From an uncultured Chloroflexia bacterium (GTDB lineage: Bacteria; Chloroflexota; Limnocylindria; Limnocylindrales; CSP1-4): a stretch of 64,000 nucleotides of DNA. Positions within the stretch are counted from its first letter, which is position 1, and every line of letters begins with the position of its first letter. Made by a program: the position numbers and the translations under genes. The notes beneath the pieces were generated by a model. That model did no database searches, had not been told where the DNA came from, and saw only the letters and a list, made by a program, of their open reading frames with translations. This document shows, one piece after another, positions 8,893 to 32,311 of the stretch. The stretch is from contig CAWHXD010000019.1 of assembly GCA_963833225.1 (NCBI GenBank), positions 448,001 through 512,000 of the forward strand. The letters are read 5' to 3'.

Positions 8893-8896
8893 CCCG

Positions 8897-11270: not shown

Positions 11271-11295
11271 CGGTGGGCCTCGCCGGCAGGGGTCG

Positions 11296-19422: not shown

Positions 19423-19935
19423 GGCAGGAGGGCCGGGCCGGAACCCCACCATGCGGAGCTGCTCCACGACCCGTCGCCGAGCCTCTGGCGTGCCGTCGTA
19501 GCGCCAGCCGACCAGGCTCGAGAGCACCCGCCAGACCACCGGCCGGATCAGCCGGTTCTGCCGCTCGTACTCGGCCAGGATCGCCGTCGCCTCGTCCGTC
19601 TCGAGCACCCGGTGCACCGGCACGTACCGGTCGCGCCCGATCCGGACCTCCTGCGCCAGGCCGGCCTCCACGTTGTGAAGCCAGCCGGTCTTCACGCCCC
19701 AGCCGGCGACGACGACCGCCTCGCGGATCGACTTGTCATAGCGGACCACCTCGAGGACCGTCTCGCGTCGCAGGCCCGTGCGACGTCCCTTGGTCACGAG
19801 GAACAGGAAGCGGCGGCCGAACAGGAAGCCGAGGCCGGCGTGGTACAGGTGGACGGGCAGCCCCAGCAGCAGGCGGAGCAGGCCGCGCGGCGGAGAAGGC
19901 TGGTCGGCGACGGGTTCGCCGCTCGGTTCGGTCAT
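19414..19935 (-). CDS. Ddn-like deazaflavin (F420)-dependent oxidoreductase (DUF385)
   Basis: LVTKGRRTGLRRETVLE, VAGWG..TGWLHNV; GGAG RBS. Confidence 0.85.
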   Translation of the reverse strand: MTEPSGEPVADQPSPPRGLLRLLLGLPVHLYHAGLGFLFGRRFLFLVTKGRRTGLRRETVLEVVRYDKSIREAVVVAGWGVKTGWLHNVEAGLAQEVRIGRDRYVPVHRVLETDEATAILAEYERQNRLIRPVVWRVLSSLVGWRYDGTPEARRRVVEQLRMVGFRPGPPASG

Positions 19936-19985
19936 GTCCTTGCTCCCAGTGCCGCCCCGGCGCCATGTGCGTCGTAGCGGGTCCA

Positions 19986-20018
19986 ATGATAGCCAACTGG
20001 CAAGCAATTGGATATGCT
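19986..20018 (+). promoter_or_regulatory. Imperfect palindromic operator plus TATGCT -10-like box upstream of marR-clc
   Basis: ATGATAGCCAACTGGCAAGCAATTG; 24/25 identical to the reverse complement of 34517-34541. Confidence 0.75.
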
Positions 20019-20025
20019 GGCGAGC

Positions 20026-20466
20026 GTGACATCCCATGATCCCCTGGCGGCCCTGGACCGCATCGTCATCGGGGCCATCGGCCTGACCACGCACGCGCTC
20101 GCCGAGGCCGCTCCCGCGACCGAGCTGACCTTCCCGCAGTGGCGCGCGCTCCTGATCCTCGGCGAGGACCAGGACGGCGCCCGGGTGGGCCAGGTGGCCA
20201 CGCGGGTGGGTGCCACGCTGCCGGCGACCAGCCGCCTTCTGCGACGGCTCGCCCGGCGCGACCTCGTCGCCCTCGTCCCCGACGAGCTCGACCATCGGGC
20301 CACGCGCGCCAGGCTCACGGTCCGCGGCCGGGAGGTCCGGATCGCGATCCTCGCCTACCGCGGCGCGGCGCTGCGGGAGATCGCCAGCCGCCTGGACGAC
20401 CGTCATGGGGGCCCGACCCGGTCGTCGCTCGAGGCCCTCGCTGAGGCGTTCGAGGCGTACGCCTGA
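20026..20466 (+). CDS. MarR-family regulator (start may be 20014)
   Basis: LTFPQWRALL, ATSRLLRRL..LV, DHRATRARLT.RG; TGATG overlap with the CLC gene. Confidence 0.88.
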   Translation: MTSHDPLAALDRIVIGAIGLTTHALAEAAPATELTFPQWRALLILGEDQDGARVGQVATRVGATLPATSRLLRRLARRDLVALVPDELDHRATRARLTVRGREVRIAILAYRGAALREIASRLDDRHGGPTRSSLEALAEAFEAYA

Positions 20467-22547
20467 TGCAGGACCTCCGCCCGCGTTTCGACGCCAGGAT
20501 GCGGCGGATGCAGCGGCGGATCCGGTCCGCCAGCTACCTGCGGAAATGGGTCGTCCTGGGCGCCCTGATCGGGGTCGTCGGTGGCCTCGGCGCGATCACC
20601 TTCTATACCGCCCTGGACGTGGCGACCCACCTGTTCCTCGGGGTGCTGGGCGGCTACGTCCCGCCGTCGCCCGCCGGGGAGGGCGGCGCCCCCATCGTGG
20701 CCGGCTTCGACCGGCCCTGGGCCATCCCGCTCGTGGTCGCGCTCGGTGGACTCATCTCTGGGCTCATCGTGTTCCGCTTCGCCCCGGAAGCGGAGGGACA
20801 CGGGACGGATGCCGCGATCGCCGCCTTCCACCACCACCCGCGCGGGATCCGTGCACGCATCCCCCTCGTCAAGCTCGTCGCCTCCGCCGTCACCATTGGC
20901 TCGGGCGGCTCGGGCGGCCGCGAGGGCCCCACGGCCCAGATCAGCGCCGGGTTCGGGTCCTATCTCGGCCGGCTCCTGGACCTCGACGCACGAGACGCGC
21001 GGATCGCCGTTGCCGTCGGCATGGCCGCGGGGATCGGGGCCATCTTCCGGGCGCCGCTTGGTGGCGCCGTCCTGGGTGCCGAGCTCCTGTACCGCGATGA
21101 CGTGGAATCGGATGCCCTGGTCCCGTCGTTCATCGCCACGATCGTCGCCTACTCGATCTTCGGGACCGTCGAGGGGTTCAGCCCCATCTTCGGCGCGCAG
21201 GCACGGTTCGGGTTCAGCGATCCGGCACAGCTCGGCTGGTACGCGCTGATCGGTCTCGTGTGCGGCCTGGTGGGCCTGCTCTACATCCGCAACTTCTACG
21301 GCGTGACGGCCTGGTTCAGTCGATGGGCAGCGCCTCGCTGGCTCAAGCCGGCGATCGCGGGGTTCGTGGTCGGATGCATCGGTCTCATCATCCCCGGCGC
21401 CCTGGGAACCGGCTACGGCTTCCTCCAGGCCGGCCTCGACCGCGATGCCCTCGCGGCGATCCCGCTGTGGATGGTCCTCCTGCTGCCGTTCGCCAAGATC
21501 CTCGCGACCTCGCTCTCGATCGGCTCCGGCGGTTCGGGCGGCATCTTCGGTCCCGGGATGTTCATCGGCGGCATGCTTGGGGCCGCGATCTGGCGGCTCC
21601 TCGAGCCCATCGCCCCCGCCATCCCGGCGGATCCCGCCCCATTCGTCATCGTGGCCATGATGGCTGTGTTCGGCAGCGTGGCCCACGCACCGCTCGCGGT
21701 GATGCTGATGGTGGCCGAGATGACCGGCAACCTCTCGATGCTGGCTCCGGCGATGGTCGCTGTCGGGCTCGCCATGTTCGTGGTGGGCCCGCGGTCCATC
21801 TACAAGAGCCAGCTGATCACGCGGGCGGACTCACCAGCACACCGCTTCCGCTTCGCGCTGCCCCTGCTGGCCGCGGTCGCGGCCGGTGACGCGGCCCGCC
21901 AGGCGCGCGTGATCGTCCAGTCGGACGAGACCGTCGCAGCGGCTCGCGGGCGGATGATCGCCGCCGGTGTCCCTGGAGCCCCCGTGATCGCGCGCGACGG
22001 AACGGTCACCGGCGTGGTGGACCAGGAGGCCCTCGACGGCGTGCCCGATGACGAGCTCGTGGGCCACCACCTGACCGCTCAGGAACCGATCCTGGTGGCC
22101 GAGGACGGCCTCGATGACGCGCTGGGCGCGCTCGCCGACCACGCCCGGGACTGGGCACCCGTTGTCTCGGGCCACCGCCTGATGGGCATCCTGTCGGTTC
22201 GTGACGCGATGGGCGCCTATCGCTCCGCTCTCAACAGCAACGTCCGGCAGGTGCGCGGGTTCCGGGCGGACGGCGTCATCGTGGAGACCGAGGTCGTGAA
22301 GGGGTCGGCGCTGGCCGGCCGCACGGTGGCCGGCGTCCAGTGGCCGCGGAAGGTGGTCGTGGTCGCCATCGAGCGCCACGAGACGCTGCTGGTCCCGCGG
22401 GGCGATCTGGTGATGGAGCCGGGCGACAAGATCTCGCTGTTCGCCGACACCGGGGCAGCCGCCGAGCTGGACACGCTGCTGCACGCCGAGGCGCCACCTG
22501 TCGCCGACGCCGAAGGCGGGGATCCGGCCCCGACACCCGTCGCCTAG
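20466..22547 (+). CDS. CLC chloride channel/antiporter with CBS and TrkA_C domains, copy 1
   Basis: GHGTD, GSGGREGP, FRAPLGG, GGIFGP, EMTG, SIY; C-terminal VPRGDLVMEPGD. Confidence 0.93.
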   Translation: MQDLRPRFDARMRRMQRRIRSASYLRKWVVLGALIGVVGGLGAITFYTALDVATHLFLGVLGGYVPPSPAGEGGAPIVAGFDRPWAIPLVVALGGLISGLIVFRFAPEAEGHGTDAAIAAFHHHPRGIRARIPLVKLVASAVTIGSGGSGGREGPTAQISAGFGSYLGRLLDLDARDARIAVAVGMAAGIGAIFRAPLGGAVLGAELLYRDDVESDALVPSFIATIVAYSIFGTVEGFSPIFGAQARFGFSDPAQLGWYALIGLVCGLVGLLYIRNFYGVTAWFSRWAAPRWLKPAIAGFVVGCIGLIIPGALGTGYGFLQAGLDRDALAAIPLWMVLLLPFAKILATSLSIGSGGSGGIFGPGMFIGGMLGAAIWRLLEPIAPAIPADPAPFVIVAMMAVFGSVAHAPLAVMLMVAEMTGNLSMLAPAMVAVGLAMFVVGPRSIYKSQLITRADSPAHRFRFALPLLAAVAAGDAARQARVIVQSDETVAAARGRMIAAGVPGAPVIARDGTVTGVVDQEALDGVPDDELVGHHLTAQEPILVAEDGLDDALGALADHARDWAPVVSGHRLMGILSVRDAMGAYRSALNSNVRQVRGFRADGVIVETEVVKGSALAGRTVAGVQWPRKVVVVAIERHETLLVPRGDLVMEPGDKISLFADTGAAAELDTLLHAEAPPVADAEGGDPAPTPVA

Positions 22548-22557
22548 GCCGTGCCGG

Positions 22558-23376
22558 CTACGCCTCGGTGGCCGCGATCAGGTCGTCGTACCCGGACGGG
22601 TCCGGGGCAACCCAGCGGTGGACGTACTCGAGGCGCATCGGCTCGCGGATCTGCGGATCGTCCTCGTCCATGGTCATCAGCAGCTCCACGAACCGGGCAT
22701 GGTCCGCCCGCGTCGCGTCGAGGACCGTGAAGTTGCAGTGGTTGAACGGCGGCGAGGTCCACGCGATGGCCAGTCCCTTGTCCGCCCCGGCGTCACGGAC
22801 CGCGGCCCACGTCGGCGCCGACACGACGCACGCATCGAGCTCGCCCGCCGCCAAACGCTCCAGCTGGGCGAACTCGGCTCCGCCGGTGTCACCGTGCTTG
22901 CCGAGGTCCCGGTCGAGGCGTTCGCCGCGGAAGGCGACCAGGGGGTCGAACCCGGACCGGCGCATGGCGAAGGCCGGCAGGATCCAGGCCTGGGGCGAGT
23001 CGCTGTCGCCGAACCCGACGCGCCGGCCGCGCAGTGCCTCGAGCCCGCCGCCGGCGGCGGGTGACCCGGCGGGCACGACGACGAGGCTGGTCCATCCTCG
23101 GTCGGTGTCGCGCATCGCGATCGGCCGACAGCTTCCGCCGGTCGCTCGCAGCGTGGCCACGTACGCAAGGTTCGTGTTCCACGCCACGTCGATCCAGCCA
23201 TCCGCCAGGGCGGCCACCTGCTCCTCGTAGGACGAGAACAGGACGTACTCCAGCGGCACGCCCCGGTCGCGGAACCAGCGCCGGAACGCCTCCCAGATGG
23301 TGACCACCTGCGCCTTGTACGCGACCGCCCCGACGCGGTAGACGGCCCGCCCCGAGGGCTTCATCACGCTCCCCAT
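22558..23376 (-). CDS. PhnD/SsuA-like substrate-binding-fold protein without signal peptide (Rv1680-like)
   Basis: VGAVAY..IWE, AWNTNLAYV, RDTD, GKHGDTG, NHC; TGATG-coupled to the upstream gene. Confidence 0.8.
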   Translation of the reverse strand: MGSVMKPSGRAVYRVGAVAYKAQVVTIWEAFRRWFRDRGVPLEYVLFSSYEEQVAALADGWIDVAWNTNLAYVATLRATGGSCRPIAMRDTDRGWTSLVVVPAGSPAAGGGLEALRGRRVGFGDSDSPQAWILPAFAMRRSGFDPLVAFRGERLDRDLGKHGDTGGAEFAQLERLAAGELDACVVSAPTWAAVRDAGADKGLAIAWTSPPFNHCNFTVLDATRADHARFVELLMTMDEDDPQIREPMRLEYVHRWVAPDPSGYDDLIAATEA

Positions 23377-24521
23377 CAGAACAGGTCCATGCCGAGGAGC
23401 GCCTTGCCGACGAAGTCGCGGAGCACGTCCGTGGTGGGCGCCATCACCGTCCACGCGCGAGCGTCCCGGAAGTTCCGCTCGATCCCGAGGTGCCGCGAGA
23501 ACGCCGCCCCGCCGCAGGCACGCATCGCCGCATCGGTGACGTCGATCGCCATCTCGGCCGCCGCGGCCTTGAGCGCGAGCACCCCCAGCCGGGCTTCCGG
23601 CTCGCCGTCCTCGACCTGGCGGGCGACCTCGTAGAGCAGCGCCCGTGCCTGCATGTGGCGGATCTTCGCCTCCGCCAGGCGGGCCCGGACGCCCGGGATA
23701 TCCGCGAGCGACGAGCCGAGGTGCTGGAGGCGCGCGCCGCCGACGTGGTCCGTCGCGGTCGCGAGGGCCGCCGCGGCGATGCCCATCGAGGTGGCGGAGC
23801 CGGACAGCACGAACCAGGGGAGGGTGGCCGACATCATCAGCCCAAATCCGGAGCCGGGATCGCCCAGGCGTCGGTCCACGTCGACCTGGACCCCGCGGAA
23901 GGTGACCGGTGCCGAGGCATTGCCACGCATGCCGAGCCCGTCGAAGGCGACGGGAACGGCCAGGCCGTCGGAACGGGAATCAACGACGTACAGCTCGGTC
24001 TCCAGCGGGCTGGTTCCCCCCACGGCTCCGGTTGCCGCCACGTAGGAATCGGCTTCACCGGCCGAGGTCACCCATGACTTGTCGGCATCGATCGTGACGC
24101 TGGCTCCGGGACCTGGGAGGGCTCGCGACACCTGCGCCCAGAAGTGGCTCCGGGACCCCTTCTCGCTGTAGGCAAGCGTCGTGAGGTGTCGTCCGGCGGC
24201 AATCTCCCGCAGGATCTCCGCCTTGATCCCGTCGTCAGGCCCGGTGGTCCCCCCGGCGATGGTCCGCGAGCCGACGAGATGCATCGTGTAGACCATCCCG
24301 GTCGAGGCGCAGGCAGCCGCCACCTGCTCCACCACCCCCACAACCTCGGCCGCCGTCGCGCCGGCTCCCCCATAGGCGGTCGGCACGGCAAGGCCCAGCA
24401 GGTCGCTGCGTCGCAGGGCTTCGACCGCCTCGGCGGGGAAGCGGGCGGAGTGGTCGACGTCCGGGGCGTTGGCGCGGATCACCTCGATGGTCGCCTCGAG
24501 GTCGGGGGTCGCGACGGTCAT
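23376..24521 (-). CDS. Acyl-CoA dehydrogenase-family flavoprotein (Rv1679/FadE16-like)
   Basis: FP, GLAVP.AYGGAG, LAYSEKGSRSHFW, KSWVT, GMRGNAS, GGAAF, ERNFRDAR; ATGA overlap. Confidence 0.88.
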   Translation of the reverse strand: MTVATPDLEATIEVIRANAPDVDHSARFPAEAVEALRRSDLLGLAVPTAYGGAGATAAEVVGVVEQVAAACASTGMVYTMHLVGSRTIAGGTTGPDDGIKAEILREIAAGRHLTTLAYSEKGSRSHFWAQVSRALPGPGASVTIDADKSWVTSAGEADSYVAATGAVGGTSPLETELYVVDSRSDGLAVPVAFDGLGMRGNASAPVTFRGVQVDVDRRLGDPGSGFGLMMSATLPWFVLSGSATSMGIAAAALATATDHVGGARLQHLGSSLADIPGVRARLAEAKIRHMQARALLYEVARQVEDGEPEARLGVLALKAAAAEMAIDVTDAAMRACGGAAFSRHLGIERNFRDARAWTVMAPTTDVLRDFVGKALLGMDLF

Positions 24522-26074
24522 CTGAAATCCTCCACGTTGGTCGAGAGCCCGGTCTCGGGTTGGGCCAGGGCGCGCGTCGAGTCGGGCGCAGCCTGTTCAT
24601 TGGAGCGCGCCTCGATGACGGCTCGATGACGGGCCAGCCAGGCGGCGGTCCGGGGCGCCCTGGCGGGCTCCTCGACCACGGTGGGCGCCAGGGCGAGCAG
24701 GTCCGCGAGCGTGTCGATGTCTGGCCACGACTCGCCGGTGGCGGGCCGCCAGCCGGCACCGACAAGGCCCGCCTGCGTGGCGGCGCGAGCCGTGGTGCCG
24801 CCCAACCGGACGACCTCGAGGGCACCCCTGAGTCGCCGCTCCAGGGCCCGGCGGCGACGATCACGCAGGCGGGCCGGCCACCATGGAGGAGCGCCGGGCC
24901 AGCGGAGGCCGATGAGGTGATATCCCCCGTCGGGAGTTGGCCCCAGCACCGCCGCATCACCAGCCCGCCCGAGGCGCTCCAGCGCGGCCAGGATCACGTC
25001 CTCGTGGATCGACGGGTTGTCGCCGGCAACCGCGATCGCCCGGTCGGCCCCGGCGTCGAAGGCGGTGAGGAACACGTCCACGAGCGCCCCGGCAAGCCCG
25101 GAGGAGGTCTGGACCCGGATCGCCCAGTCGCGACCGACCAGGTCACGGATCGGAGCGACGTCCTCGATCCGCGGAACCATGATCAGGGTCGATGCCCGCG
25201 AGCGATCGGCAGCCCGGACGAGACCCGCCGCCGTGTCTGCGAGGCACGCGGCCCATGCCGAGGCCGTCAGTTCCTCGCCGATCTCCCTGGCCAGCCTGGT
25301 CTTGGCGTGGCCCGCGCCGGGCGCCTTGGCCATCAGCGCGAGGACCGGCGCCGGTCGGCGCTCGCGGACCGTGGTCTCGATCAGGGCCCTGGCTGCCGCT
25401 GCCGAGCCGCGCGGGGAGCCGGACACCTTGCTGGTCCCGCCCTGCCGGGGTCGGAAGCGAACGGCGATCTCGCGGATGACCAGGCCGCGGTCGGCCAGGG
25501 CCCGGGCGACCAGCTGGGCGGTCCATCCATACCCGTCGTGATCCAGCGCGAGGCGTCGGAGGGTGCCTGCGCGCAGGACCTTCGCCGGCGGCAGGTCGTG
25601 GACCCGCCGTCCCGTCAGCTGGCTGGCCAGGGCCGCGACGAGCGTGTTGCCGACCCGCGCGTGCCAGGGCATGGCGCCGCGCTCGATGAGCCGGCCCGGA
25701 CGACGCCCGAGGACCACGTCGGCGTCGGGGAGCGCGGCGGTGAGGCGCCCAACGTCGGCAGGGTCGCACGAGCCATCGCCGTCGAGGAACGCCACGGCAT
25801 CGTGCTCGTGACCGTCCGGGGCCGGGGCGAGCGCGACGTCGGTCCCGGTGCGGCAGGCGCGCCCGTAGCCTCGCCGCGGCTCCAGGATCAGCCGCGCTCC
25901 CGCCGCGGCCGCGACGACGGCGGTGGCGTCCCGAGAGCCCCCGTCGACGACCAGCACGCAGCACGCGGTCCCGTCGAGGAGACCTGCGACCACAGCCCCG
26001 ATCGCCGCCTCCTCGTCGAGCGTGGGGATCACGGCTGCCACCCGGAGCGGCACCCTGGCCGACGGCACGGTCAC
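24518..26074 (-). CDS. GT2 glycosyltransferase fused to a DUF2064 (CofC-like/TIGR04282-like) domain
   Basis: VIPTLDEE, VVDGGSRD, RGYGRA, FLDGDGS, GTSKVSG; then MAKAP.AGHAKTRL, AGDNP, LGPTPDGGYHLIG, DIDTLADL. Confidence 0.82.
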   Translation of the reverse strand: MTVPSARVPLRVAAVIPTLDEEAAIGAVVAGLLDGTACCVLVVDGGSRDATAVVAAAAGARLILEPRRGYGRACRTGTDVALAPAPDGHEHDAVAFLDGDGSCDPADVGRLTAALPDADVVLGRRPGRLIERGAMPWHARVGNTLVAALASQLTGRRVHDLPPAKVLRAGTLRRLALDHDGYGWTAQLVARALADRGLVIREIAVRFRPRQGGTSKVSGSPRGSAAAARALIETTVRERRPAPVLALMAKAPGAGHAKTRLAREIGEELTASAWAACLADTAAGLVRAADRSRASTLIMVPRIEDVAPIRDLVGRDWAIRVQTSSGLAGALVDVFLTAFDAGADRAIAVAGDNPSIHEDVILAALERLGRAGDAAVLGPTPDGGYHLIGLRWPGAPPWWPARLRDRRRRALERRLRGALEVVRLGGTTARAATQAGLVGAGWRPATGESWPDIDTLADLLALAPTVVEEPARAPRTAAWLARHRAVIEARSNEQAAPDSTRALAQPETGLSTNVEDFR

Positions 26075-27581
26075 GGTGCGTCGCTCGAGACAGGTCCGAG
26101 CAGCGTGAACCGCCCGTCCGTGGCGATCACCCGGCGGTCCTCCCCGCGGATTCTGGTGATCGCCCGCTCTCGATTGGCGCTGGCCCAGGAGCTGGGGCTC
26201 CATGCGTCCGCGTCGAGGAGGACATAGCCCCCCGCGATGTTCCGGGGGTTGCGGTTCACCAGCCGGATCTCCGAACGGGACGCCAGCGGCGCTGCAAGCC
26301 CCTCGTCGACGACTAGGAGGGCGTCCGGCGGCACAGACCCGGCGATCATCCGCACGGCCCCGATTGCGGCGGGCCGGTGGTACGGCGCGGCCGCGCCCTG
26401 GTCGAACGGCGGCACGGAACCCTGGACGGCGGCGACGACCAGCGCCGGTCCCGCCAGGCCGACCACGCCGACCACGCGAAGCGCTCCTGCCCCCCGGGCC
26501 GTCGCGCGTGGCGCCCAAGCCAGGCGAGCGCCCGTCGAGCGCCGAACGCGGCCGCGACGAGCGCCGGCGCCACGAGGATGATCGGGTACTGGAGGAGCAG
26601 CAGAGCCTGGGGTGGATGGTGCGAGAGGAGCACCGCCGCGAGTGGCGGTGCCAGAAGCAGCAGCCAGCGGGGCCTGAGGAGCGGCAGCCCGGCGAGCGAC
26701 ACGAGGAGCCCGGCAACCTTGAACCAGGTTCGATCCTGGGTCAGCGCGGCGATCACCCGGTCGGGCATGCGGAACGGGGTGAGCAGGATCCCGGGTCCGG
26801 AGCCCAGCCAGCGGTAGTAGGCCGCGGTGTCGACGATCGCCCCGTCGCGCGCGATGGGCATCAGGATCCCGAACACGATGACCGCCCAGGCGGTCGCGAC
26901 GATCGCCAGGGCGGCGCCTCGGCGACGTGCCCGACCATGCGCCAGCCCCCACGTCGCGAGGCCCACGACGAACACGGCATAGGTGACATCCTCGCGGGTG
27001 GACAGCGCGAGCGCGGCCAGGATCCAGGTGGCCGCTCCTCGGCCGGTCAGGGCTGCCCAGCCGGCCGCCAGGGCCAGCACGACGCCGGCGACCTCGGGAT
27101 GGAAGTCGGCCCGGATCACCTGTTGGGTGACCGCCCAGGCGGGGATGGGCAGGGCGAGCCCCAGGGCAACCAGCCCGGCGTGGCGGCTCGGCCGGAGCGC
27201 CGCACGGAGGAACAGGAAGCCTGCCGGGGCCAGCGCCGCGACCGCCATCGCATGCAGCAGGCTGAGCAGGCGAGCGTCGAGCCACAGGCCGCGCTCCAGG
27301 AGCGCCGGAACGACCAGGATGGGCGAGAAGTGCAGCCCCAGGAACGACCCGTCGCCAAAGCTGGTCAACCACGCCCCGTCCTCGCCGACCCGCCAGACCA
27401 GCTGCTGGAAGAACGCCTGGTCGTACGCCGGTGTGGCCAGGCCGTCCGCGCGGGCCAGGAGCAGCGACGCGATCCAAACGGCCGCGAGGACCGACACCCC
27501 GCAGATCACGACCGCCGTGCCAACCGATGTCAGGTGGCGCGGACGAGGCCCGACGGTCGATGTCTCTCCGACCAGCGCCAC
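26071..27581 (-). CDS. DUF2079-like polytopic membrane protein (probable GT-C transferase); frameshift near 26500
   Basis: YDQAFFQQ, FLGLHFSPI, DFHPE, RED, QY; many TM helices; C-terminal periplasmic domain in a second frame. Confidence 0.75.
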
Positions 27582-27589
27582 GATCGAGA

Positions 27590-28654
27590 TCAGGCCCCGG
27601 TCGGGATCGCAGCCGACGTGGCAGCCGCGGTCGCCCGCCGCTCGGCCGTCGTCAGGAGCGGGCTGTCGCCGGTGCGGTAGCGGCGGGCGATCCCCTGGGC
27701 GGCGCGCCTGACCGCCTCCGCCGCGTCGACCGAGGGCCGCCAGCCGAGGGCGGCGATCGCTCGGGTGTCGAACGCCACGAACGGCGTGTCGCCCCGCCAG
27801 CCGGCGCCCTTGGCGGCGACCTCCCGGTAGATCCGGGTCACCGTCGACGGGTCGATGCCGAGCGCCTCCACGATCAGGTCCGCCACCTCGTCCACGCTGA
27901 GGGTCCCCTCCGGTCCCACGTTGAGGACGGTGACCGGATCGGTCGCGAGACGCGCCGCATGGCGCATCCCGGCCACCAGGTCCGCCACGTCGACGAAGGG
28001 CTTGCGCTGGCGGCCGTCGCCCAGGATCTCGAGCCGGTCCGGATCACGCAGCAGCTTGACGACGAGGTCGTGGACCACGCCGTGGTCCGAGCTGGCACCC
28101 TGGGTGTTGCCGAAGCGGAAGGCGAGGGCCCGCCAGCCGTACAGGTGCGCGAAGCCGGACACGATCGCCTCGCCGGCCAGCTTGCCAGCCGCGTAGTGGG
28201 ATGCCGGCCGGAAGGGGCCGTCGCCCTCGGCGGTCGGCCGCCCGTGCGAGTCCCCGTAGACCACACCCGACGAGGCGTACCAGAGATCGGTCACGCCGTG
28301 GCGGAGCATCGTCTCGCACACGGTCTCCGTCCCCTGGATCCCGGCTCGGAAGTCGCGCTCGGGGTGGCCATATCCGCCCGCGATGTCGGTGCCCGCCGCA
28401 AGGTGGACGACCCGCCGGCAGCCCGCGATCGCGGCCTCGACCGCGCCCGCTTCGGCCACATCACCCTCAACGAGATGCCAGCCGGGCCTCCCGGCCAGCC
28501 GGGCCTCCCAGCCGGGGCTCGCGGTCGAGAGGTCGTCGAGGATCGTGACCTCGCAGCCGTCGTCGAGCAACGAACTGACCACTTCGCTGCCGACGAACCC
28601 GGCCCCCCCGGTGACCAGGGACGGGACGGGGGCAAGGGCTTCGGGCTCCGTCAC
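27590..28654 (-). CDS. NAD-dependent nucleotide-sugar epimerase/dehydratase
   Basis: VTGGAGFVGS, HLAA, ASSGVVYG, YAAGK, RFGN, GDGRQRK, GWRGD. Confidence 0.92.
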   Translation of the reverse strand: MTEPEALAPVPSLVTGGAGFVGSEVVSSLLDDGCEVTILDDLSTASPGWEARLAGRPGWHLVEGDVAEAGAVEAAIAGCRRVVHLAAGTDIAGGYGHPERDFRAGIQGTETVCETMLRHGVTDLWYASSGVVYGDSHGRPTAEGDGPFRPASHYAAGKLAGEAIVSGFAHLYGWRALAFRFGNTQGASSDHGVVHDLVVKLLRDPDRLEILGDGRQRKPFVDVADLVAGMRHAARLATDPVTVLNVGPEGTLSVDEVADLIVEALGIDPSTVTRIYREVAAKGAGWRGDTPFVAFDTRAIAALGWRPSVDAAEAVRRAAQGIARRYRTGDSPLLTTAERRATAAATSAAIPTGA

Positions 28655-28658
28655 CTCG

Positions 28659-29213
28659 TCAGCCGGGCCAGCGCCGGCGCGTCGCGGCGAACCGGGCGTC
28701 GAGGCCATGCCACCGGCCGGCCCGGAACGCGGCCAGGCAGAGCAGTGGGAGCCACTCCAGCGAGTACTCGTAGATCCACTTGTCGTTCCACAGCGTCGCG
28801 AACTGCAGGTGGAGCGCCATCCCGGCCGCGAGGAGGGCGGCGATGGGCGTCGCCAGGCCCAGGATCAGGAGCACCCCGACCAGCACCTCGGCGGCCCCGA
28901 GGCCGAACGCGAACAGCCCGAAGTTCGGGAGGACCACGTTCTCGACGAGGGCGCGGTACGGCTCGACGGGGTGCGGCTGGGTGACGACCTCGTACTGGAG
29001 GATCGAGTAGGCGCTGCGATTGCCGGTGGCCGCGATGACGAACCCCAGCGGGGTGTCGGGCCACAGGTTCGGGACGGCCGGCAGGAGCTTGGCAATCCCG
29101 TTGTGGAGGTACACGATCCCGAAGTAGATGCGGATCGCGGCCATCGCCCGCCCGAACCAGCGACTCCCGACGGCCTCCTCGATGGAGCCCCGCGGCGAAG
29201 CCATCGCGGTCAT
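28659..29213 (-). CDS. DoxX / TQO small subunit DoxD-like membrane protein
   Basis: RIYFG...GIAK, AEVLVGVLLILGL.T, AGRWHGLD; GGAGGA RBS. Confidence 0.8.
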   Translation of the reverse strand: MTAMASPRGSIEEAVGSRWFGRAMAAIRIYFGIVYLHNGIAKLLPAVPNLWPDTPLGFVIAATGNRSAYSILQYEVVTQPHPVEPYRALVENVVLPNFGLFAFGLGAAEVLVGVLLILGLATPIAALLAAGMALHLQFATLWNDKWIYEYSLEWLPLLCLAAFRAGRWHGLDARFAATRRRWPG

Positions 29214-29238
29214 CAGATCCTCCTCCTGCAGGCGACGG

Positions 29239-30438
29239 TCAGCCGCACACGAAACGGTCGAGCCGGGCGGCGCGACCAGCCACGAGATCCACGAGGCGGC
29301 TCCGGACGCTGTCAAGGGCAGTCGCGAGCGAGGCGTCGGCCGGTGTCGGGAGCCGCATGTCGGGGTCGTTGGAGATCGGGTGCCACGACCACCCGAGCGC
29401 GTCGTATGTCGGCTCCGGCGCGACATCGTCCGCGCGGATGGCCTCACCCGCGTCGGCCGCCCCTCGGAGCGCGATGGGTCGGAAGATGCGGTCGGCGGGC
29501 GCAACTCCCAGCTCGTCGGCCAGGCGGTGGAGCGCCGGCAGCTCGCCGAGGCTTGCCTCCGAGAGGCTGGCGGCAAGCCGGACCGGGACGCCGGCATCGC
29601 GCAGGGTCGCGATCCCCGCCAGTGCGCGCGCGTGGGCTCCCGCGCCGCGATGCGCATCGTGGAGCACGGGCGTTGCCGAATCGAGGCTCACCTGGAAGGT
29701 GACGCGCCGCCCGCCCGCAGCGACCGTGCGCAGCCGGTCCCATCGCGGGCCGCGCAGGAGCATCGCGTTGCTCAGGATCGTGACCGGGATCATGGCGGAA
29801 ACGGCGCTGACGATCTCGGGCAGGTCCGGCCGCAGCGTCGGCTCGCCGCCCGTCAGGAACAGGCGCTCGAACCCGAGGCCGGCGGCCTCGCCGGCGAGCT
29901 CGACGATCCTCGCTCCATCGACTCGGCGCGGGTCGGCACGTGGGCCGGCCACCACACAGCAGTAGTCGCAGGCGAGATTGCAGTCGTAGTTGGTGTAGAT
30001 CCACAGCCGCCGCGGCATCAGCTCGCCGACCTGGTCAAGGGTGCTCGCACCGGGCTGCGCCGAGCCCTGGTCGTCGGTGCCGGCATCACGGTCGCCGGGT
30101 GCCGCCCAGTCCGTGCGCGCTCGCCCCTTGCGCAGGTAGTACCGGCGCCAGCCCGGGCGCCCGGGATCGTCCTCGATTCGCAGGAGCCCATGACCCGCCG
30201 AGGTGGCGAAGCCCTGGAGCTCCTGGGCCAGTGCCGAGACCGGGCTCGTGATCAGCAGGACCTGTCCGCGTCGGAGGCCCAGGAGCGCCGCATGGATGCG
30301 CAGCAGGAGACCCGAGCCCAGATCTGCCCGGCCGTCCTCGAGCTCGGCGTGGACCGGGATCGGCCGGGTGCCTCCGTAGGAGGGGAGCGCCATCGGCAGC
30401 GTCATGAGCGGCACGGTACGAGGGCCCTGTGACGCCAC
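29239..30438 (-). CDS. Radical SAM protein with N-terminal TusA-like domain (Rv1681/MoeX-like); start could be 30405 or 30393
   Basis: RLWIYTNYDCNLACDYCC, LTGGEP, QVSLDS, HDAHRG, WHP, C-terminal FVCG. Confidence 0.88.
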   Translation of the reverse strand: MASQGPRTVPLMTLPMALPSYGGTRPIPVHAELEDGRADLGSGLLLRIHAALLGLRRGQVLLITSPVSALAQELQGFATSAGHGLLRIEDDPGRPGWRRYYLRKGRARTDWAAPGDRDAGTDDQGSAQPGASTLDQVGELMPRRLWIYTNYDCNLACDYCCVVAGPRADPRRVDGARIVELAGEAAGLGFERLFLTGGEPTLRPDLPEIVSAVSAMIPVTILSNAMLLRGPRWDRLRTVAAGGRRVTFQVSLDSATPVLHDAHRGAGAHARALAGIATLRDAGVPVRLAASLSEASLGELPALHRLADELGVAPADRIFRPIALRGAADAGEAIRADDVAPEPTYDALGWSWHPISNDPDMRLPTPADASLATALDSVRSRLVDLVAGRAARLDRFVCG

Positions 30439-30533
30439 GGTGACGCTTGACCTCCCCGCGCTGGCATCAGCGGCCCCGCGAGCTGCGTCCGATGGCCCTT
30501 GCCCGGGCCCCGTGACACGGGCAGCCTCGACGG

Positions 30534-31019
30534 ATGTGGACGAGACGGGGCGGCACCGGCGGGGCGCTCGACGGGCCGTCGCTGCGCGCCGCGGGCATCG
30601 TCTGGATGGTCGTGAACGCGGTGAACGTGCTCCAGGCCGCCGGGTTCGCGACGCGCCCGTTCGCCCCTGAGGTCAACCCGGTTCTCGGTCTGGTCATCGC
30701 GGCCCTGGCCGTGCCCGCCACCTGGGCGCTCCTGATCTTCGTCCGCCAGCGGGCCGGCTGGCGGCATCTTGTGGGCCCGGTCGCCTTCGACGTGTTCGTG
30801 GTCCTGATGCTGTGGGTGGATCAGATCGCCAACATCGAGTGGCGCAACCCCGTCGTCCCGGCCATCCAGGTCCCGTACCTGTCCCTGTTCTTCGGCAGCA
30901 TCCTGCTGATGGGGCTCCCCATGTTCCGGATCGACCGCCGTCGGTGGCTGGTCACAGCGGTCACGACGATCACCCTGCTTGCGGCCATGATCTACGCGAC
31001 GGCGGCCGGCGTCGGCTGA
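30534..31019 (+). CDS. Hypothetical membrane protein (about 5 TM)
   Basis: Hydrophobic helices; clean ORF. Confidence 0.7.
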   Translation: MWTRRGGTGGALDGPSLRAAGIVWMVVNAVNVLQAAGFATRPFAPEVNPVLGLVIAALAVPATWALLIFVRQRAGWRHLVGPVAFDVFVVLMLWVDQIANIEWRNPVVPAIQVPYLSLFFGSILLMGLPMFRIDRRRWLVTAVTTITLLAAMIYATAAGVG

Positions 31020-31087
31020 CGACAGCCCCCACTGGCCGGGGCCGGTGGGCACTATTGCCGGGCGTGGGTCAGCGCCATCCTTGCGGC

Positions 31088-32311
31088 ATGCCCGACGACG
31101 TCCTCGACTGGCTCCTGGATCCCGCTGATCCCGGGGTCCGCCACCTCGCGCTCCGGGATCTCCTGGGACGCCAGCCCAGCGACCCGGAGCTCACCCTCGC
31201 CCGCGACGAAGCGATGGCCGCGCCGCCCATCCGCACCATCCTCGACGCGCAGGACGCGGCCGGCTGGTGGGTCAGACCCGGCCCGGGCTACGGCGGCAAG
31301 TACACGGGAACGACCTGGTCGCTCATCTTCCTCGAGCAGATGGGTGCTGATGGTGCCGATCCCGGGATCGCCCGCGGCTGCGACTACGTCCTCGACCACG
31401 CGCAGGCACCAAGCGGCGGCTTCGGCTACGGCGGCTGGCTGGACGAGGGCAGGCGGCCGCCCCCGTCCTCGGTGATCCACTGCCTCAACGGCAACCTGCT
31501 GCGAGCCCTGATCCGCTTCGGCTGGCTGGACGATCCGCGCACGCAGGCCGCGATCGCGTGGCAGACCGCGGCCATCACCGGGGACGGCGATATCCGCTGG
31601 TACAGGTCGACGACCAGCGGACCGGGCTTCGCCTGCGGCGTCAACGAGCAGCTACCCTGCGGCTGGGGCGCGGTCAAGGCGCTGCGGGGCCTGGCCGCGA
31701 TCCCGCCCGATCGCCGAAGCCCGGAGGTCCGGGCCGCCATCGATGCCTCCGTCGCGTTCCTGCTCTCGCGCGATCCCGCGGTCGCGGACTACCCGATGGG
31801 GTGGGGCAACGCCCGCCCCAGTGGCTCCTGGTTCAAGCTCGGCTTCCCGTCGGGGTACGTGGCGGACGTGCTCCAGGTGCTCGAGGTTCTCGCGGAGCTG
31901 GGGCTCGCCGATGACCCGCGCCTGGACCGTTCCCTGGACCTCGTGCGGGGCAAGCGCGATGCGACCGGCCGCTGGCGGAACGAGAACCCGTACCGGGGCA
32001 AGACGTGGATCGACGTGGACGAGCCGCGCCGGCCCAGCAGATGGGTCACGCTTCGCGCGCTCAAGGTCCTGCGTGCGGCAGCGGGGGCGGGAGCGCCCCG
32101 GCGCTCGCCCGCATCACCGACTAGGTCGGACCCCCAGGCTCAGGGGGAGGGGCGGGGTGACCCGCTTCGTCTGCCGGTTCAGGCTGTCCAGCCTGGCCGT
32201 CCGGGTCACCCTCCGGGTCCGCGTCGGCCGTCGACGGCGGCTGCTCGGGACGAGGCGTGGCGATGCGATCGGCGAGCTCGTCCGCCAGCTCATGGTCGAC
32301 GAGCACGGTGA
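31088..32311 (+). CDS. Prenyltransferase/squalene-cyclase repeat (alpha-alpha barrel) protein; true end probably near 32100
   Basis: DWLL...P.VR, QW-like QDAAGWW, KY.GTTW, FGFP-like LGFPSGYVAD, PSRWVTLRAL; the tail overlaps the convergent gene by 190 bp. Confidence 0.7.
   Translation: MPDDVLDWLLDPADPGVRHLALRDLLGRQPSDPELTLARDEAMAAPPIRTILDAQDAAGWWVRPGPGYGGKYTGTTWSLIFLEQMGADGADPGIARGCDYVLDHAQAPSGGFGYGGWLDEGRRPPPSSVIHCLNGNLLRALIRFGWLDDPRTQAAIAWQTAAITGDGDIRWYRSTTSGPGFACGVNEQLPCGWGAVKALRGLAAIPPDRRSPEVRAAIDASVAFLLSRDPAVADYPMGWGNARPSGSWFKLGFPSGYVADVLQVLEVLAELGLADDPRLDRSLDLVRGKRDATGRWRNENPYRGKTWIDVDEPRRPSRWVTLRALKVLRAAAGAGAPRRSPASPTRSDPQAQGEGRGDPLRLPVQAVQPGRPGHPPGPRRPSTAAARDEAWRCDRRARPPAHGRRAR

Follow-up and report, generated by a model that had tools for sequence, protein, structure and literature searches.

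The three-component GtrA/GtrB/GtrV system represents a general scheme of periplasmic glycosylation, in which a cytoplasmic GT2 enzyme forms a polyprenyl-phosphate sugar, a small membrane protein takes part and a GT-C enzyme transfers the sugar outside the cytoplasm. For methylthio-xylose (MTX) capping, Angala et al. reportedly proposed in 2017 a route from MTA via MTR-1-P to an NDP-sugar, followed by C-3 epimerisation. Neighbours of the MTX genes in M. tuberculosis are Rv0535 (MTAP), Rv0536 (GalE3) and Rv0540. The decaprenyl-P-MTX donor is synthesised by MtxS (Rv0539), and MtxT (Rv0541c) is the enzyme that transfers MTX (PMC8780516, PMC12088412). For the families NF049973, NF049985 and NF049984, which are those of Rv1681, Rv1680 and Rv1679, the literature searched yielded no published function.

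The window analysed here, a stretch of 64,000 nucleotides from a Chloroflexota metagenome-assembled genome (MAG; G000), contains seven minus-strand genes at 22558-30438, which overlap or are separated by at most 25 nt (Table 1). A preliminary description had reported co-directional genes with overlapping or <30-bp junctions, and the refined gene ends bear this out. The gene identities and their order (TusA-like/radical SAM, DoxX, SDR epimerase, DUF2079 GT-C, GT2-DUF2064 fusion, ACAD-like, signal-less PhnD-like) were confirmed, and each of the seven translations has a Pfam match; the actinobacterial framing of the cassette does not apply, since the host is a Chloroflexota MAG. The junctions are +25 nt between the radical SAM and DoxX genes, +4 nt (or a 50-nt overlap) between DoxX and the epimerase and +8 nt between the epimerase and DUF2079, while the last three are overlaps of GTGA (DUF2079/GT2-DUF2064), ATGA (GT2-DUF2064/ACAD) and TGATG (ACAD/SBP). 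Analysis of the seven gene ends revealed no gap big enough for a precursor peptide. The seven genes form one real operon, which is translationally coupled in the window.

Table 1. Genes and sequence features of the operon (positions in the window).
Feature	Position	Strand	Details
Radical SAM protein, 399 aa	29239..30438	-	GTG start at 30438; Pfam PF04055, NCBIfam NF049973
DoxX/DoxD-family small membrane protein, 184 aa	28659..29213	-	ATG at 29213 behind Shine-Dalgarno-like AGGAGGAGG
Extended SDR NDP-sugar epimerase-like protein	27590..28708	-	Start ATG 28708 or, more likely, GTG 28654
DUF2079 GT-C-type membrane protein, ~503 aa if read through	26071..27581	-	Pfam PF09852
G6 homopolymer, frame break of the DUF2079 gene	26490..26495	-	Sequence and reading frames
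GT2-DUF2064 fusion, 518 aa	24518..26074	-	Pfam GT2 17-143, DUF2064 289-394
ACAD-fold flavoprotein, Rv1679 type	23376..24521	-	NCBIfam NF049984; four Pfam ACAD domains
PhnD-fold SBP-like protein, Rv1680 type, 272 aa	22558..23376	-	Pfam Phosphonate-bd, NF049985

The DUF2079-like membrane protein described earlier was recovered by Pfam, whose model PF09852 matches the N part with E 1e-26, but its gene is split in the assembly by a 1-nt frameshift at the G6 run. The N part comprises 364 aa; the remaining 138 aa, which make up the C part, lie in another frame and resemble the C-termini of the proteins of loci L084 and L085. The only two contigs listed at this site, from metagenome runs X2 and X3, carry one extra C (plus strand) behind 26489, which gives a frame running on into the C part. 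The protein has no detectable similarity to GT87 or to the GT-C candidate of the actinobacterial genome G697.

All seven genes are present in the same order in the related MAGs L105 and L106, with 57-77% protein identity, and L085 has all seven families co-directional in a different order. In other orders the gene set was found in further Chloroflexota, in Actinomycetota and Myxococcota and in an archaeon. We surveyed 32 loci anchored on an Rv1681-type radical SAM gene with at least 6 kb on either side: 26 contained DUF2064, 24 GT2, 19 DoxX and 17 NUDIX genes, and a GT-C gene was present in 19 (GT87 in 16, DUF2079 in three). As background, the 201 other 20-kb windows of G000 contained no DUF2064, no DoxX and five GT2. 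Since the order recurs in L105 and L106 and DUF2064 is found in none of these 201 windows, the seven-gene arrangement exceeds chance.

Among the Chloroflexota genomes sampled, DUF2064 was found in 17/20 radical SAM-positive and 95/381 radical SAM-negative genomes (one-sided Fisher p = 8e-8), and among the Actinomycetota genomes in 19/20 and 92/381 (one-sided Fisher p = 1e-10); both p-values overstate the co-occurrence, because related genomes are non-independent. Taking both phyla together, DUF2064 accompanies the radical SAM gene in 36 of 40 carrier genomes, and in 10 of the 19 double-positive Actinomycetota genomes the two lie at most 5 kb apart. DUF2064 is present in about 25% of the radical SAM-negative genomes and thus does not depend on the radical SAM protein. 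Linkage of radical SAM and glycosylation genes extends across Chloroflexota, Actinomycetota, Myxococcota, an alphaproteobacterial MAG and a Thermoplasmata MAG, showing that the combination of a radical SAM core with glycosylation genes, claimed earlier for this stretch, does occur in other genomes and in several phyla. Because the pairing recurs in this way, the two gene sets probably serve one sugar pathway.

The GT2-DUF2064 protein is encoded by a single ORF (Glycos_transf_2 E 8e-13, DUF2064 E 1.5e-14), and the fusion is covered by one tblastn HSP in L084, L105, L106 and L120. Its GT2 domain matches AglJ (81 bits), dolichyl-P-hexose transferase (63 bits) and also PpgS in NCBIfam and appears to be of the polyprenyl-phosphate sugar-synthase type. 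Because of these matches and the adjoining GT-C protein, the earlier proposal of a lipid-linked donor and a GT-C transferase is reasonable. The DUF2064 domain has the conserved nucleotidyltransferase-like KAPxPGxxKTRL motif and CofC/MobA-type matches. GGAGFVGS and YAAGK motifs are present in the translation of the SDR protein (Pfam Epimerase E 1e-43; GalE model 108 bits), which has no dehydratase-type Asp-Glu behind the catalytic Ser. DoxX (Pfam DoxX E 1.2e-9, DoxD 1e-6; 74-84% identical in L084, L105, L106 and L108) may be either a flippase or a quinone-linked redox partner, since the set has no other conserved small protein with several membrane passes. The operon resembles the GtrA/GtrB/GtrV scheme in combining a GT2, a small membrane protein and a GT-C, but its small membrane protein, a putative flippase, belongs to the DoxX and not to the GtrA family, and it adds a nucleotide-sugar-forming domain and radical chemistry.

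The likeness to MTX capping was traced through G697. This genome contains a cluster of the order MTAP-SDR-(two membrane ORFs)-GT2-DUF2064, followed by a divergent 454-aa ORF, for which Pfam gave no match, and an AMP-ligase gene; this order presumably matches that of Rv0535-Rv0542c. The GT2 of the cluster is 42% identical to the GT2 part of the window protein, its SDR 30% identical to the window's epimerase and its DUF2064 30% identical to a reference DUF2064. A DoxX-ACAD-SBP-radical SAM set is located 11.7 kb from this cluster, and its radical SAM protein scores 537 bits, above the cut-off. In the Gaiellales locus L113 a bona fide MTAP (346 bits, cut-off 306) adjoins DUF2064-NUDIX. In G000 an MTAP gene and the operon are about 390 kb apart, and neither an MTAP nor a nucleosidase is among the seven operon genes; beside radical SAM genes, MTAP could merely remove inhibitory 5'-deoxyadenosine. 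Operon and MTX pathway have in common an SDR epimerase, a GT2 that would load a sugar onto polyprenyl phosphate, a DUF2064 beside or fused to the GT2, and a GT-C enzyme. The operon differs in the lack of MTAP, the fusion of GT2 to DUF2064 and a GT-C of the DUF2079 family, and it adds the radical SAM, DoxX, ACAD-like and SBP-like proteins. The glycosylation half follows the logic of MTX capping with its enzymes MtxS and MtxT (PMC8780516, PMC12088412), and the pathway, previously regarded as undescribed, has a precedent in this half.

We propose that the seven genes specify a pathway for decorating an envelope glycan, organised like MTX capping and joined by a radical SAM tailoring or supply unit, a reading to which we give an even chance of being correct. 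Gene content and order, domain families, active-site features, recurrence and genome co-occurrence are computed; from these we infer substrates, step order and acceptor as follows. A 5'-substituted adenosine, for which methylthioadenosine, 5'-deoxyadenosine and a new adduct from the radical SAM enzyme are candidates, would be cleaved by MTAP-type phosphorolysis to a 5-deoxy-5-substituted pentose-1-phosphate, which the DUF2064 domain, as a CofC/MobA-like nucleotidyltransferase, would convert to an NDP-sugar. The SDR epimerase would alter the configuration of this NDP-sugar, and the fused GT2 domain would load the sugar onto polyprenyl phosphate. The lipid-linked sugar would then cross the membrane, with DoxX as flippase or quinone-linked redox partner, and the DUF2079 GT-C enzyme would pass it to an extracytoplasmic acceptor. 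The Rv1681-type radical SAM enzyme, with a single [4Fe-4S] cluster and co-varying Cys161/Cys398, would produce or alter the sugar or its 5-substituent, with sulfur chemistry as the likeliest means, and the ACAD-like and cytoplasmic PhnD-like proteins would be an accessory, separable pair for a small anionic ligand resembling an S-, P- or Se-oxyanion.

For the radical SAM, SBP-like and ACAD-like proteins a match to Rv1681, Rv1680 and Rv1679 had been claimed. The three motifs quoted for it are present in the translations and the respective families are the best in NCBIfam, but the scores stay below the equivalog cut-offs (NF049973, 267 bits, cut-off 380; NF049985, 245 and 400; NF049984, 420 and 600), and no curated NCBIfam equivalog cut-off is reached by any of the window's proteins. 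Judged by their sequences, the three are homologues of these families and not equivalogs. Motifs are shared with the families, and the order ACAD-SBP-radical SAM with DoxX upstream recurs in actinobacterial loci, whereas in the window four genes part the radical SAM gene from ACAD-SBP. The N-terminal extension of the window's radical SAM protein is also longer, with ~138 aa against ~67 profile positions in NF049973. This protein (Radical_SAM, PF04055, E 6e-21) consists of a Cys-less TusA-like domain (~31-103), a linker and an Rv1681-type core (139-398), which bears CNLACDYCC and a Cys as penultimate C-terminal residue; with only five Cys in total, it should have no auxiliary cluster. In its AlphaFold model (pLDDT 87, pTM 0.85) the N-domain is beta-alpha-beta-alpha-beta-beta. 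Alignment of the fused N-domains with stand-alone TusAs of related loci (hhalign, probability 98.2%, E 6e-14) shows that they are homologous, and the active-site Cys of TusA is not conserved in the fused domain in this alignment.

The ACAD-like protein is without the canonical catalytic Glu and has Ala361 in a conserved VMAPT motif, where in an alignment to PDB ACADs YEG stands opposite its MAP; Ala361 is nearly invariant across 38 homologues. In the SBP-like protein (Phosphonate-bd E 4.5e-27) the motifs AWN..LA, GKHGD and HC are invariant in 37 homologues, and the N-terminus of the translation has neither a hydrophobic leader nor a signal peptide, suggesting a cytoplasmic PhnD-fold protein. 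G014, a genome of the same genus, has the other five operon genes and an SBP match nowhere in the genome, and ACAD is missing at the L108 locus; the ACAD-SBP pair is therefore separable from the rest of the operon.

TusA and DsrE proteins have a general role in sulfur trafficking. Among the 32 loci, DsrE was present in 13 and TusA in 11; in related loci the Cys of stand-alone TusA proteins is invariant, the DsrE-like proteins carry CPPC, and a second radical SAM protein and a NUDIX protein are added. Together these proteins point to sulfur chemistry, which is a live option for the operon. As in a TusA/DsrE sulfur relay, Cys-bearing TusA and DsrE-like proteins adjoin the radical SAM gene in related loci and the window's N-domain is TusA-homologous, but the latter has no Cys at the active position. 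Because of this Cys-less domain, and since the 201 other windows of G000 contained no TusA and only one DsrE reference match, a sulfur relay here is extrapolated from other loci. Some related loci encode a PhnCDE-type importer and an oxidoreductase of the SelD-associated type (best match the 'N-terminal to SelD' family, 117 bits, cut-off 310); these, together with SelD in G000, leave room for phosphorus or selenium chemistry. Of the S/Se/As-containing moiety suggested before, sulfur is thus supported by related loci, but nothing was found for arsenic. Taking the preliminary description as a whole, the single operon, the co-occurrence of radical SAM core and glycosylation genes, the lipid-linked donor with GT-C transfer and sulfur are retained, but not the arsenosugar link, the lack of precedent and the actinobacterial framing.

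The radical SAM enzyme might instead tailor a sugar without heteroatom insertion, catalysing the radical epimerisation, dehydration or decarboxylation of an NDP- or lipid-linked sugar, with the TusA-like domain having a docking or structural role and Cys161/Cys398 acting as H-donor. Among proteins of solved structure, those nearest to it in sequence and fold include BlsE, DesII, viperin and AbmM, which act on sugars of nucleotides or nucleosides, and EpeE, a radical epimerase, although such fold matches (TM 0.36-0.48) are common to the SPASM/MoaA-like branch in general. A thiol as H-atom donor is known from radical SAM epimerases, and the co-variation of the two Cys residues (both present in 21 of 35 homologues, both missing in 13) would fit this role, as would loss of the active Cys from the fused domain fit this reading as a whole. 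The Cys-bearing TusA and DsrE-like proteins beside unfused enzymes would, however, make little sense unless sulfur or selenium is transferred, and we consider such tailoring possible but unlikely. Rather improbable is a core of radical SAM, ACAD-like, SBP-like and DoxX proteins that makes a redox-active or sulfur metabolite or cofactor, which GT2/DUF2064 would glycosylate or nucleotidylate, the envelope not being the target. Parallels would be MftF, which decorates mycofactocin, and CofC of F420 synthesis; the radical SAM protein scores 62 bits with MftC, the GT2 weakly matches the MftF-like TIGR04283, DUF2064 is CofC-like, and DoxX-ACAD-SBP-radical SAM sets are found without adjoining GT genes in Kribbella, Actinomadura, Phytoactinopolyspora and other loci. 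This is opposed by the GT-C genes in the anchored loci, which accompany the set also in Myxococcota and the archaeon, by GT2 matches that are best to polyprenyl-phosphate sugar synthases, by G014, which has radical SAM and glycosylation genes without the SBP family, and by the missing precursor-peptide gap.

The arsenosugar link drawn earlier rests on database names, NCBIfam labelling TIGR04282, TIGR04283 and TIGR04167 as arsenosugar biosynthesis. Radical SAM, DUF2064 and GT2 are common to the operon and the ArsS/TIGR04282/TIGR04283 trio, and both may work by processing a pentose that derives from a 5'-substituted adenosine, but the operon has a GT2 of the polyprenyl-phosphate synthase type and a GT-C, and its proteins miss the three cut-offs by wide margins (ArsS, 45 bits, cut-off 300; TIGR04282, 84 and 134; TIGR04283, 31.5 and 182). 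An arsenosugar- or selenosugar-type pathway, in which, after the example of ArsS, the radical SAM enzyme joins 5'-deoxyadenosyl with a species of As or Se and the resulting sugar is processed by GT2/DUF2064, would be in line with the DUF2064 of Anaerolineae loci, which exceeds the TIGR04282 cut-off (177, cut-off 134), and with SelD in G000 and the oxidoreductase of related loci. We regard it as very improbable, since a Pfam scan of six flanking ORFs revealed no arsenic-related family and the selenium-related matches are far below their cut-offs. It is just as hard to believe that two unrelated modules adjoin here, an organosulfur or organophosphonate catabolic unit (ACAD-like, SBP-like, radical SAM, DoxX) and an ordinary cell-wall glycosylation unit. 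The parts do separate, in G014, in L108, in L109 (GT2-DUF2064 9 kb away) and in the core-only actinobacteria, and the nearest characterised relatives of the ACAD-like protein in NCBIfam are a desulfinase (3-sulfinopropanoyl-CoA desulfinase, its second-best match with 139 bits) and sulfur-acquisition oxidoreductases. Yet the linkage recurs in differing orders over all the groups named above, DUF2064 is present in nearly all radical SAM carrier genomes, and the genes in the window are translationally coupled.

Seven co-directional genes on the minus strand, in a region of 72% GC, were identified by ORF listing and translation. According to Pfam, the encoded proteins contain the domains Radical_SAM (E 6e-21), DoxX (1e-9), NAD-dependent epimerase (1e-43) and DUF2079 (1e-26), followed by Glycos_transf_2 (8e-13) and DUF2064 (1.5e-14) in the same ORF, four ACAD domains in the ACAD-like ORF and Phosphonate-bd (4.5e-27) in the SBP-like ORF. 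Inspection of start and stop codons gave distances of 25 nt, 4 nt (alternatively an overlap of 50 nt) and 8 nt for the first three junctions, and the last three are overlaps (GTGA, ATGA and TGATG); within the 25 nt between the radical SAM gene (rSAM) and the DoxX gene, AGGAGGAGG precedes the DoxX ATG. The operon is flanked by a convergent ClC-type channel gene, with a second ClC-type gene farther off, and by a divergent small membrane ORF, and with these flanking genes and the tight junctions it is therefore well delimited. The two ClC-type genes are not kept beside the operon in related loci. A scan of 22300-30700 for promoters and terminators returned no site of either kind, which is uninformative at this GC content. 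A RiPP system was also considered, since the rSAM is kin to peptide maturases, and was dismissed for the window, as none of the gaps between the genes could accommodate a precursor gene. Close to the operon start lies a 408-aa ORF with a prenyltransferase-like look, the sole match of which is sub-threshold (squalene-hopene cyclase C-terminal, 20.9 versus 26.1 bits). The surroundings also include an ORF whose product carries an F420H2-dependent quinone reductase-like domain (E 3e-6).

Positions of the operon, its surroundings and features of related loci (coordinates of loci L016 to L170 are those of the respective locus)
Feature	Position	Strand	Location or remark
ORF with F420H2-dependent quinone reductase-like domain	19414-20406	-	window
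ClC-type chloride channel gene with CBS and TrkA-C	20466-22547	+	window, brackets region
Seven-gene operon	22558-30438	-	window
G6 run, DUF2079 frame break	26490-26495	-	window
Divergent membrane ORF	30534-31019		window, between operon start and 408-aa ORF
408-aa ORF	31085-32311	+	window
ClC-type chloride channel gene with CBS and TrkA-C	32121-34340	-	window, brackets region
PhnD/PhnE/PhnC-type ABC importer	7059-9002 and 6281-7042		L016
Pyridine-nucleotide-disulfide oxidoreductase	4502-6235	-	L016
DUF2079 frame break	~7523-7530		L084
Class I SAM-dependent methyltransferase	10768-11409	-	L084
Break in DUF2064-containing gene	within 6447-7271		L108
Break in DUF2064-containing gene	within 6049-6795		L165
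Position at a Solirubrobacterales ACAD-SBP locus, example	10594-12066		L170
MTAP-linked cluster and rSAM cluster	G697:C1:3830001-3866000		L184/L185

The complete gene order (rSAM-DoxX-epimerase-DUF2079-GT2::DUF2064-ACAD-SBP) is also present in the loci L105 and L106, with identities of 57-77%, and the loci nearest to the operon belong to MAGs labelled Limnocylindria or Chloroflexi. G014, a genome of the same genus, contains the first five genes with a class I SAM methyltransferase ahead of them (locus L084) and no match to the Rv1680 family anywhere in its 93% complete genome. Locus L108 is without the ACAD gene, L109 contains rSAM-DoxX-ACAD-SBP with the GT2::DUF2064 gene 9 kb off, and L085 (genome G176) encodes all families co-directionally in a changed order, with separate GT2 and DUF2064 genes and an intact DUF2079 of 473 aa. 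These variants show that the parts of the operon are modular. Outside Chloroflexota, the Gaiellales order is ACAD-SBP-(CMD)-rSAM-(membrane+GT2)-(DUF2064+NUDIX)-MTAP, and in Streptomyces DoxX, ACAD, SBP and rSAM are divergent from DUF2064, GT2 and the epimerase. In Myxococcota, an alphaproteobacterial MAG and a Thermoplasmata MAG, the ACAD-SBP-rSAM genes are accompanied by GT2, DUF2064 and a GT-C-like protein. The carriers include culturable, non-pathogenic organisms, namely Kribbella catacumbae DSM 19601, Streptomyces ovatisporus, Glycomyces xiaoerkulensis and Oscillochloris trichoides DG6.

Partner genes within 10 kb were counted with a multi-reference tblastn survey, restricted to loci that extend 6 kb or more to both sides of the anchor. 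With the rSAM as anchor, 32 of 80 loci were usable, and 201 other 20-kb windows of G000, the genome carrying the operon, served as comparison. This survey replaced an earlier tblastn survey with the window proteins alone, which undercounted partners, and was used instead of single-linkage all-against-all clustering, since the latter put ACAD and SBP into one cluster, and GT2, DUF2064 and NUDIX into another. When the SBP gene was the anchor (42 usable of 80 loci), ACAD was detected at 37 loci, rSAM at 20, GT2 and DUF2064 at 14 each, DoxX at 11, the epimerase and NUDIX at 6 each and MTAP, a phosphorylase gene, at 3.

Partner families near the rSAM anchor and in other windows of G000
Family	rSAM loci (of 32)	G000 windows (of 201)
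DUF2064	26	0
GT2	24	5
Second rSAM, SPASM/twitch type	21	0
DoxX	19	0
NUDIX	17	2
GT87	16	0
DsrE	13	1
TusA	11	0
ACAD	6	2
DUF2079	3	0
SBP	2	0
Epimerase	1	4

Co-occurrence at the genome level was determined in one sample of 401 genomes per phylum, identical for rSAM and DUF2064. DUF2064 is encoded in 17/20 rSAM-positive versus 95/381 rSAM-negative genomes of Chloroflexota (one-sided Fisher p = 8e-8) and in 19/20 versus 92/381 genomes of Actinomycetota (p = 1e-10); both p-values overstate the case, since relatives are not independent. After removal of the genomes flagged as unpublished (G310, G212, G078, G266; G536, G574, G602; G693, G472, G772, G628) the numbers are 17/20 versus 91/377 and 16/17 versus 88/377, respectively. 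Of the 19 Actinomycetota genomes with both genes, 10 have DUF2064 at most 5 kb from the rSAM gene; with the flagged genomes removed, this is 9 of 16.

G000 is a Chloroflexota genome of 3.89 Mb in 20 contigs and is 86% complete. The distribution of the rSAM is patchy: with the window protein as query (E <= 1e-20), G014 was the only one of 24 other genomes of the same genus to give a match, and the 16 genomes of a second genus of the same order gave none. At E <= 1e-30, 20 of 401 genomes of the phylum contain it, G000 included, and only 44 of 1.84 billion cluster representatives match.

The DUF2079 ORF stops early in the assembly and the conserved C-terminal part goes on in a different frame; Pfam PF09852 reaches 94.6 bits (gathering score 28.2) on the N-terminal part. 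The frame break is located at a run of six G residues on the minus strand. Contigs of four public metagenome runs (X1-X4, salt-marsh type, 95-99% alike) were aligned to the operon; the only two contigs listed at the G run, from related populations in X2 and X3, each have one extra base, the length that joins the two DUF2079 parts, and no contig of X1 or X4 reaches this place. Most likely the break reflects an error in the homopolymer or a difference between strains, and not decay. In the same-genus copy the frame is broken elsewhere in the gene, which fits a long-read error; L105 is an example of a related locus with an intact gene. Frame breaks or in-frame stops were also observed in DUF2064-containing genes of two related MAGs (loci L108 and L165), and these and the L084 break may be assembly errors.

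The preliminary description had recognized a resemblance to M. tuberculosis Rv1679-Rv1681, and this is real homology: the best NCBIfam matches of all three proteins are to these families, yet below equivalog level. The rSAM reaches 267.2 bits with NF049973 (Rv1681 family, cut-off 380; positions 68-325 of the 326-position profile), the ACAD-like protein 420.3 with NF049984 (Rv1679 family, cut-off 600) and the SBP-like protein 245 with NF049985 (Rv1680 family, cut-off 400). The homologues of G697, an actinobacterial genome (537 bits), and of G437 (513 bits) exceed the rSAM cut-off. In the ACAD-like protein, the sequence MAP (Ala361) aligns with the YEG motif that contains the catalytic Glu of ACADs in the PDB, and this Ala is conserved with few exceptions across 38 members of the family. 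Its nearest characterised kin in NCBIfam are sulfinopropanoyl-CoA desulfinase and sulfur-acquisition or desulfurisation flavoenzymes. The GKHGD and HC motifs of the SBP-like protein are invariant, and its N-terminus, judged by eye, has no leader or signal peptide.

The rSAM belongs to the superfamily, with PF04055 at 75.7 bits (cut-off 29.5) and the CX3CX2C motif within CNLACDYC (residues 153-160), which is invariant across 35 homologues. It contains only five Cys residues: three for the cluster, C161 adjoining the motif and the penultimate C398; the Cys-rich C-terminal auxiliary cluster of SPASM/twitch enzymes is thus absent. A twitch/SPASM region is present in the second rSAM encoded at Anaerolineae loci, a gene that the window does not contain. 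No solved structure was found for the Rv1681-type family. A confident AlphaFold model (pLDDT 87, pTM 0.85) shows residues 31-103 as a beta-alpha-beta-alpha-beta-beta unit with TusA fold; the fold neighbours of the model are the usual MoaA/SPASM branch (SkfB, SuiB, BlsE, EpeE, MoaA, DesII, viperin and AbmM). A profile of this fused N-terminal domain matched the stand-alone TusAs of related loci in hhalign (probability 98.2%, E 6e-14); on the window rSAM itself, TusA PF01206 gave 11.6 bits (E 0.26, cut-off 28.6). The persulfide-carrying Cys that is invariant in stand-alone TusAs is replaced by Gly or Leu in the fused domains of the alignment. C161 and C398 are both present in all 19 fused forms examined; among 16 unfused forms, 13 contain neither, two contain both and one has C398 alone. 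By this Cys pair, the family appears to split into a fused and an unfused subtype. Unfused rSAMs often adjoin a Cys-bearing TusA and CPPC DsrE-like proteins in related loci.

The glycosylation half includes a GT2 domain whose best curated matches are synthases of polyprenyl- or dolichyl-phosphate sugars (AglJ, 81 bits; dolichyl-P-hexose transferase, 63; PpgS, 42). The DUF2064 part scores 54.3 bits with PF09837 (cut-off 25.8) and 83.8 with TIGR04282 (cut-off 134); used alone as query for related loci it retrieved no relative. Because DUF2064 proteins share the N-terminal motif KAPxPGxxKTRL and also match CofC, MobA-like NTP-transferase and F420-CofC, we read the domain as a putative nucleotidyltransferase and not as a glycosyltransferase. 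The SDR epimerase contains the Rossmann and YxxxK motifs and no dehydratase-type acid pair. A GT-C membrane protein recurs but not as an orthologue: DUF2079 is found in the window and in the loci L085 and L099, and a GT87-like GT-C instead in most loci of Anaerolineae, Myxococcota and the archaeon. DoxX could act either as flippase within a three-component scheme or as an electron partner linked to quinones.

This set of an epimerase, a protein for nucleotide activation, a synthase of lipid-phosphate sugars and a GT-C follows the logic of the mycobacterial methylthio-xylose (MTX) cap pathway. The MTX pathway reportedly proceeds from methylthioadenosine to 5-methylthioribose-1-phosphate and a nucleotide sugar, followed by C-3 epimerisation and formation of decaprenyl-P-MTX. 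G697 (5.09 Mb), found through the phylum sample, allowed a direct test. It encodes on one strand MTAP, an SDR, two membrane ORFs (one DUF7937), GT2 and DUF2064 (100 bits), followed by a divergent 454-aa ORF without Pfam match and an AMP-ligase; this is what we take to be the order of Rv0535-Rv0542c. DoxX-ACAD-SBP-rSAM are located 11.7 kb beyond this cluster on the same strand. The window GT2 shares 42% identity (E 8e-32) with the MTAP-linked GT2, which by gene order is presumably the orthologue of MtxS, the polyprenyl-P-MTX synthase. Identity is 30% between the SDRs (E 4e-14) and likewise 30% between a reference DUF2064 and the DUF2064 of the cluster. The similarity does not extend to the GT-C: neither DUF2079 nor GT87 references matched the G697 region in tblastn (E <= 1e-5), and by this comparison the window DUF2079 shows no kinship to an MtxT-type GT-C. 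In G000, MTAP, which in the MTX pathway would supply 5-methylthioribose-1-phosphate, is encoded about 390 kb from the operon (293.5 bits, cut-off 274.85). No MTX-type cluster was detected in the 17-genome order of a MAG labelled 'Mycobacteriales'.

We give about even chances to the reading that the operon encodes an MTX-like pathway for lipid-linked pentose capping, in which the Rv1681-type enzyme would supply or tailor the sugar. A bolder reading, tentative and rather doubtful, is that the Rv1679-Rv1681-type cassette with DoxX is an unrecognised partner of MTX-type capping in at least five phyla and that the rSAM produces a pentose of a new kind, 5-thio- or 5-substituted. By new chemistry on a SAM-derived pentose, the enzyme would either join a 5'-deoxyadenosyl group to a sulfur (or other lone-pair) species, in the way that ArsS joins it to arsenic, or insert relay-delivered sulfur at C-5. 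If this were true, the envelopes of these bacteria would carry caps from a family of 5-thio- or 5-substituted pentofuranoses, and the homologous mycobacterial cassette would have an equivalent role. That the rSAM is a plain radical epimerase or sugar-tailoring enzyme is unlikely. A glycosylated cofactor as product appears decidedly improbable, with the CofC-type matches of DUF2064 on one side and the lipid-phosphate synthase matches of GT2 on the other. Mere adjacency of two modules that share no common pathway is hardly credible: the modules are linked in varying gene orders, and DUF2064 is present in 36 of the 40 rSAM carriers of both phyla together.

An S-, Se- or As-containing moiety, attached via a lipid-linked donor and a GT-C, had been proposed before. 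Nothing supports arsenic, and an arsenic pathway was rejected: the window proteins miss the cut-offs of TIGR04282, TIGR04283 (31.5 versus 182 bits) and ArsS TIGR04167 (45.3 versus 300). An arsenic or selenium sugar pathway as a whole is accordingly given very little credence, even with SelD present in G000. For the MTX-like pathway, the heteroatom is probably sulfur; phosphorus and selenium are kept as alternatives because of this SelD, a PhnCDE-type importer and a SelD-associated oxidoreductase match below cut-off. The importer lies beside the rSAM cluster in L016, with similar genes in L010, L024 and L035 (Anaerolineae), and its PhnE reaches 235 bits (cut-off 217). The oxidoreductase, a membrane-anchored pyridine-nucleotide-disulfide enzyme paired with a DUF1440 membrane protein, is encoded, with neighbouring genes, near the cluster in L016 and also in L021, L029, L035 and L049; its best match is the 'N-terminal to SelD' family (117 bits, cut-off 310). 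The methyltransferase gene of G014 overlaps the rSAM gene start and has homologues in about nine related loci and none in G000; the enzyme could methylate a thiol on the pathway product. An analogy to hopanoid side-chain synthesis is weak by its scores (HpnA 60 and HpnB 16 bits for window proteins; HpnH 58 bits, from the unfused L016 homologue and not the window rSAM), and the squalene-hopene cyclase-like match of the neighbouring gene is sub-threshold.

In the parts of the literature that were accessible, no function is assigned to the conserved cassette Rv1679-Rv1681, and Rv1681/MoeX and FadE16 appear only in biomarker or omics listings. The literature searched, which did not extend to supplementary gene lists, contained neither a treatment of any two of Rv1679, Rv1680 and Rv1681 together nor a combination of methylthioxylose with radical SAM; TIGR04282 is named in passing in three papers. 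New here are the full seven-gene form, the genome-level co-occurrence in two phyla, the occurrence of both clusters at the G697 locus, the analysis of the TusA domain and Cys co-variation, and the probable explanation of the frameshift from metagenome-run data. The operon, its relatives and the co-occurrence place the Rv1679-Rv1681 cassette in a testable context of DUF2064, GT2, epimerase and GT-C machinery, which by analogy to MTX may make rare 5-substituted pentose caps. Should this link be borne out, sugar biosynthesis would gain a new radical-SAM reaction, the recurrent DUF2064-radical SAM neighbourhoods would be explained, and MTX-like envelope caps would be indicated as widespread among soil and sediment bacteria; otherwise the operon still represents a clearly bounded pathway with wide conservation.

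ACAD-SBP pairs also occur without the rSAM. Many loci (within L104-L183; Solirubrobacterales loci such as L170) contain the pair alone, with an ACAD 35-41% identical to the window protein, and at 23 loci a conserved, Pfam-less protein of about 466-490 aa comes next. These loci look like a distinct sub-system.
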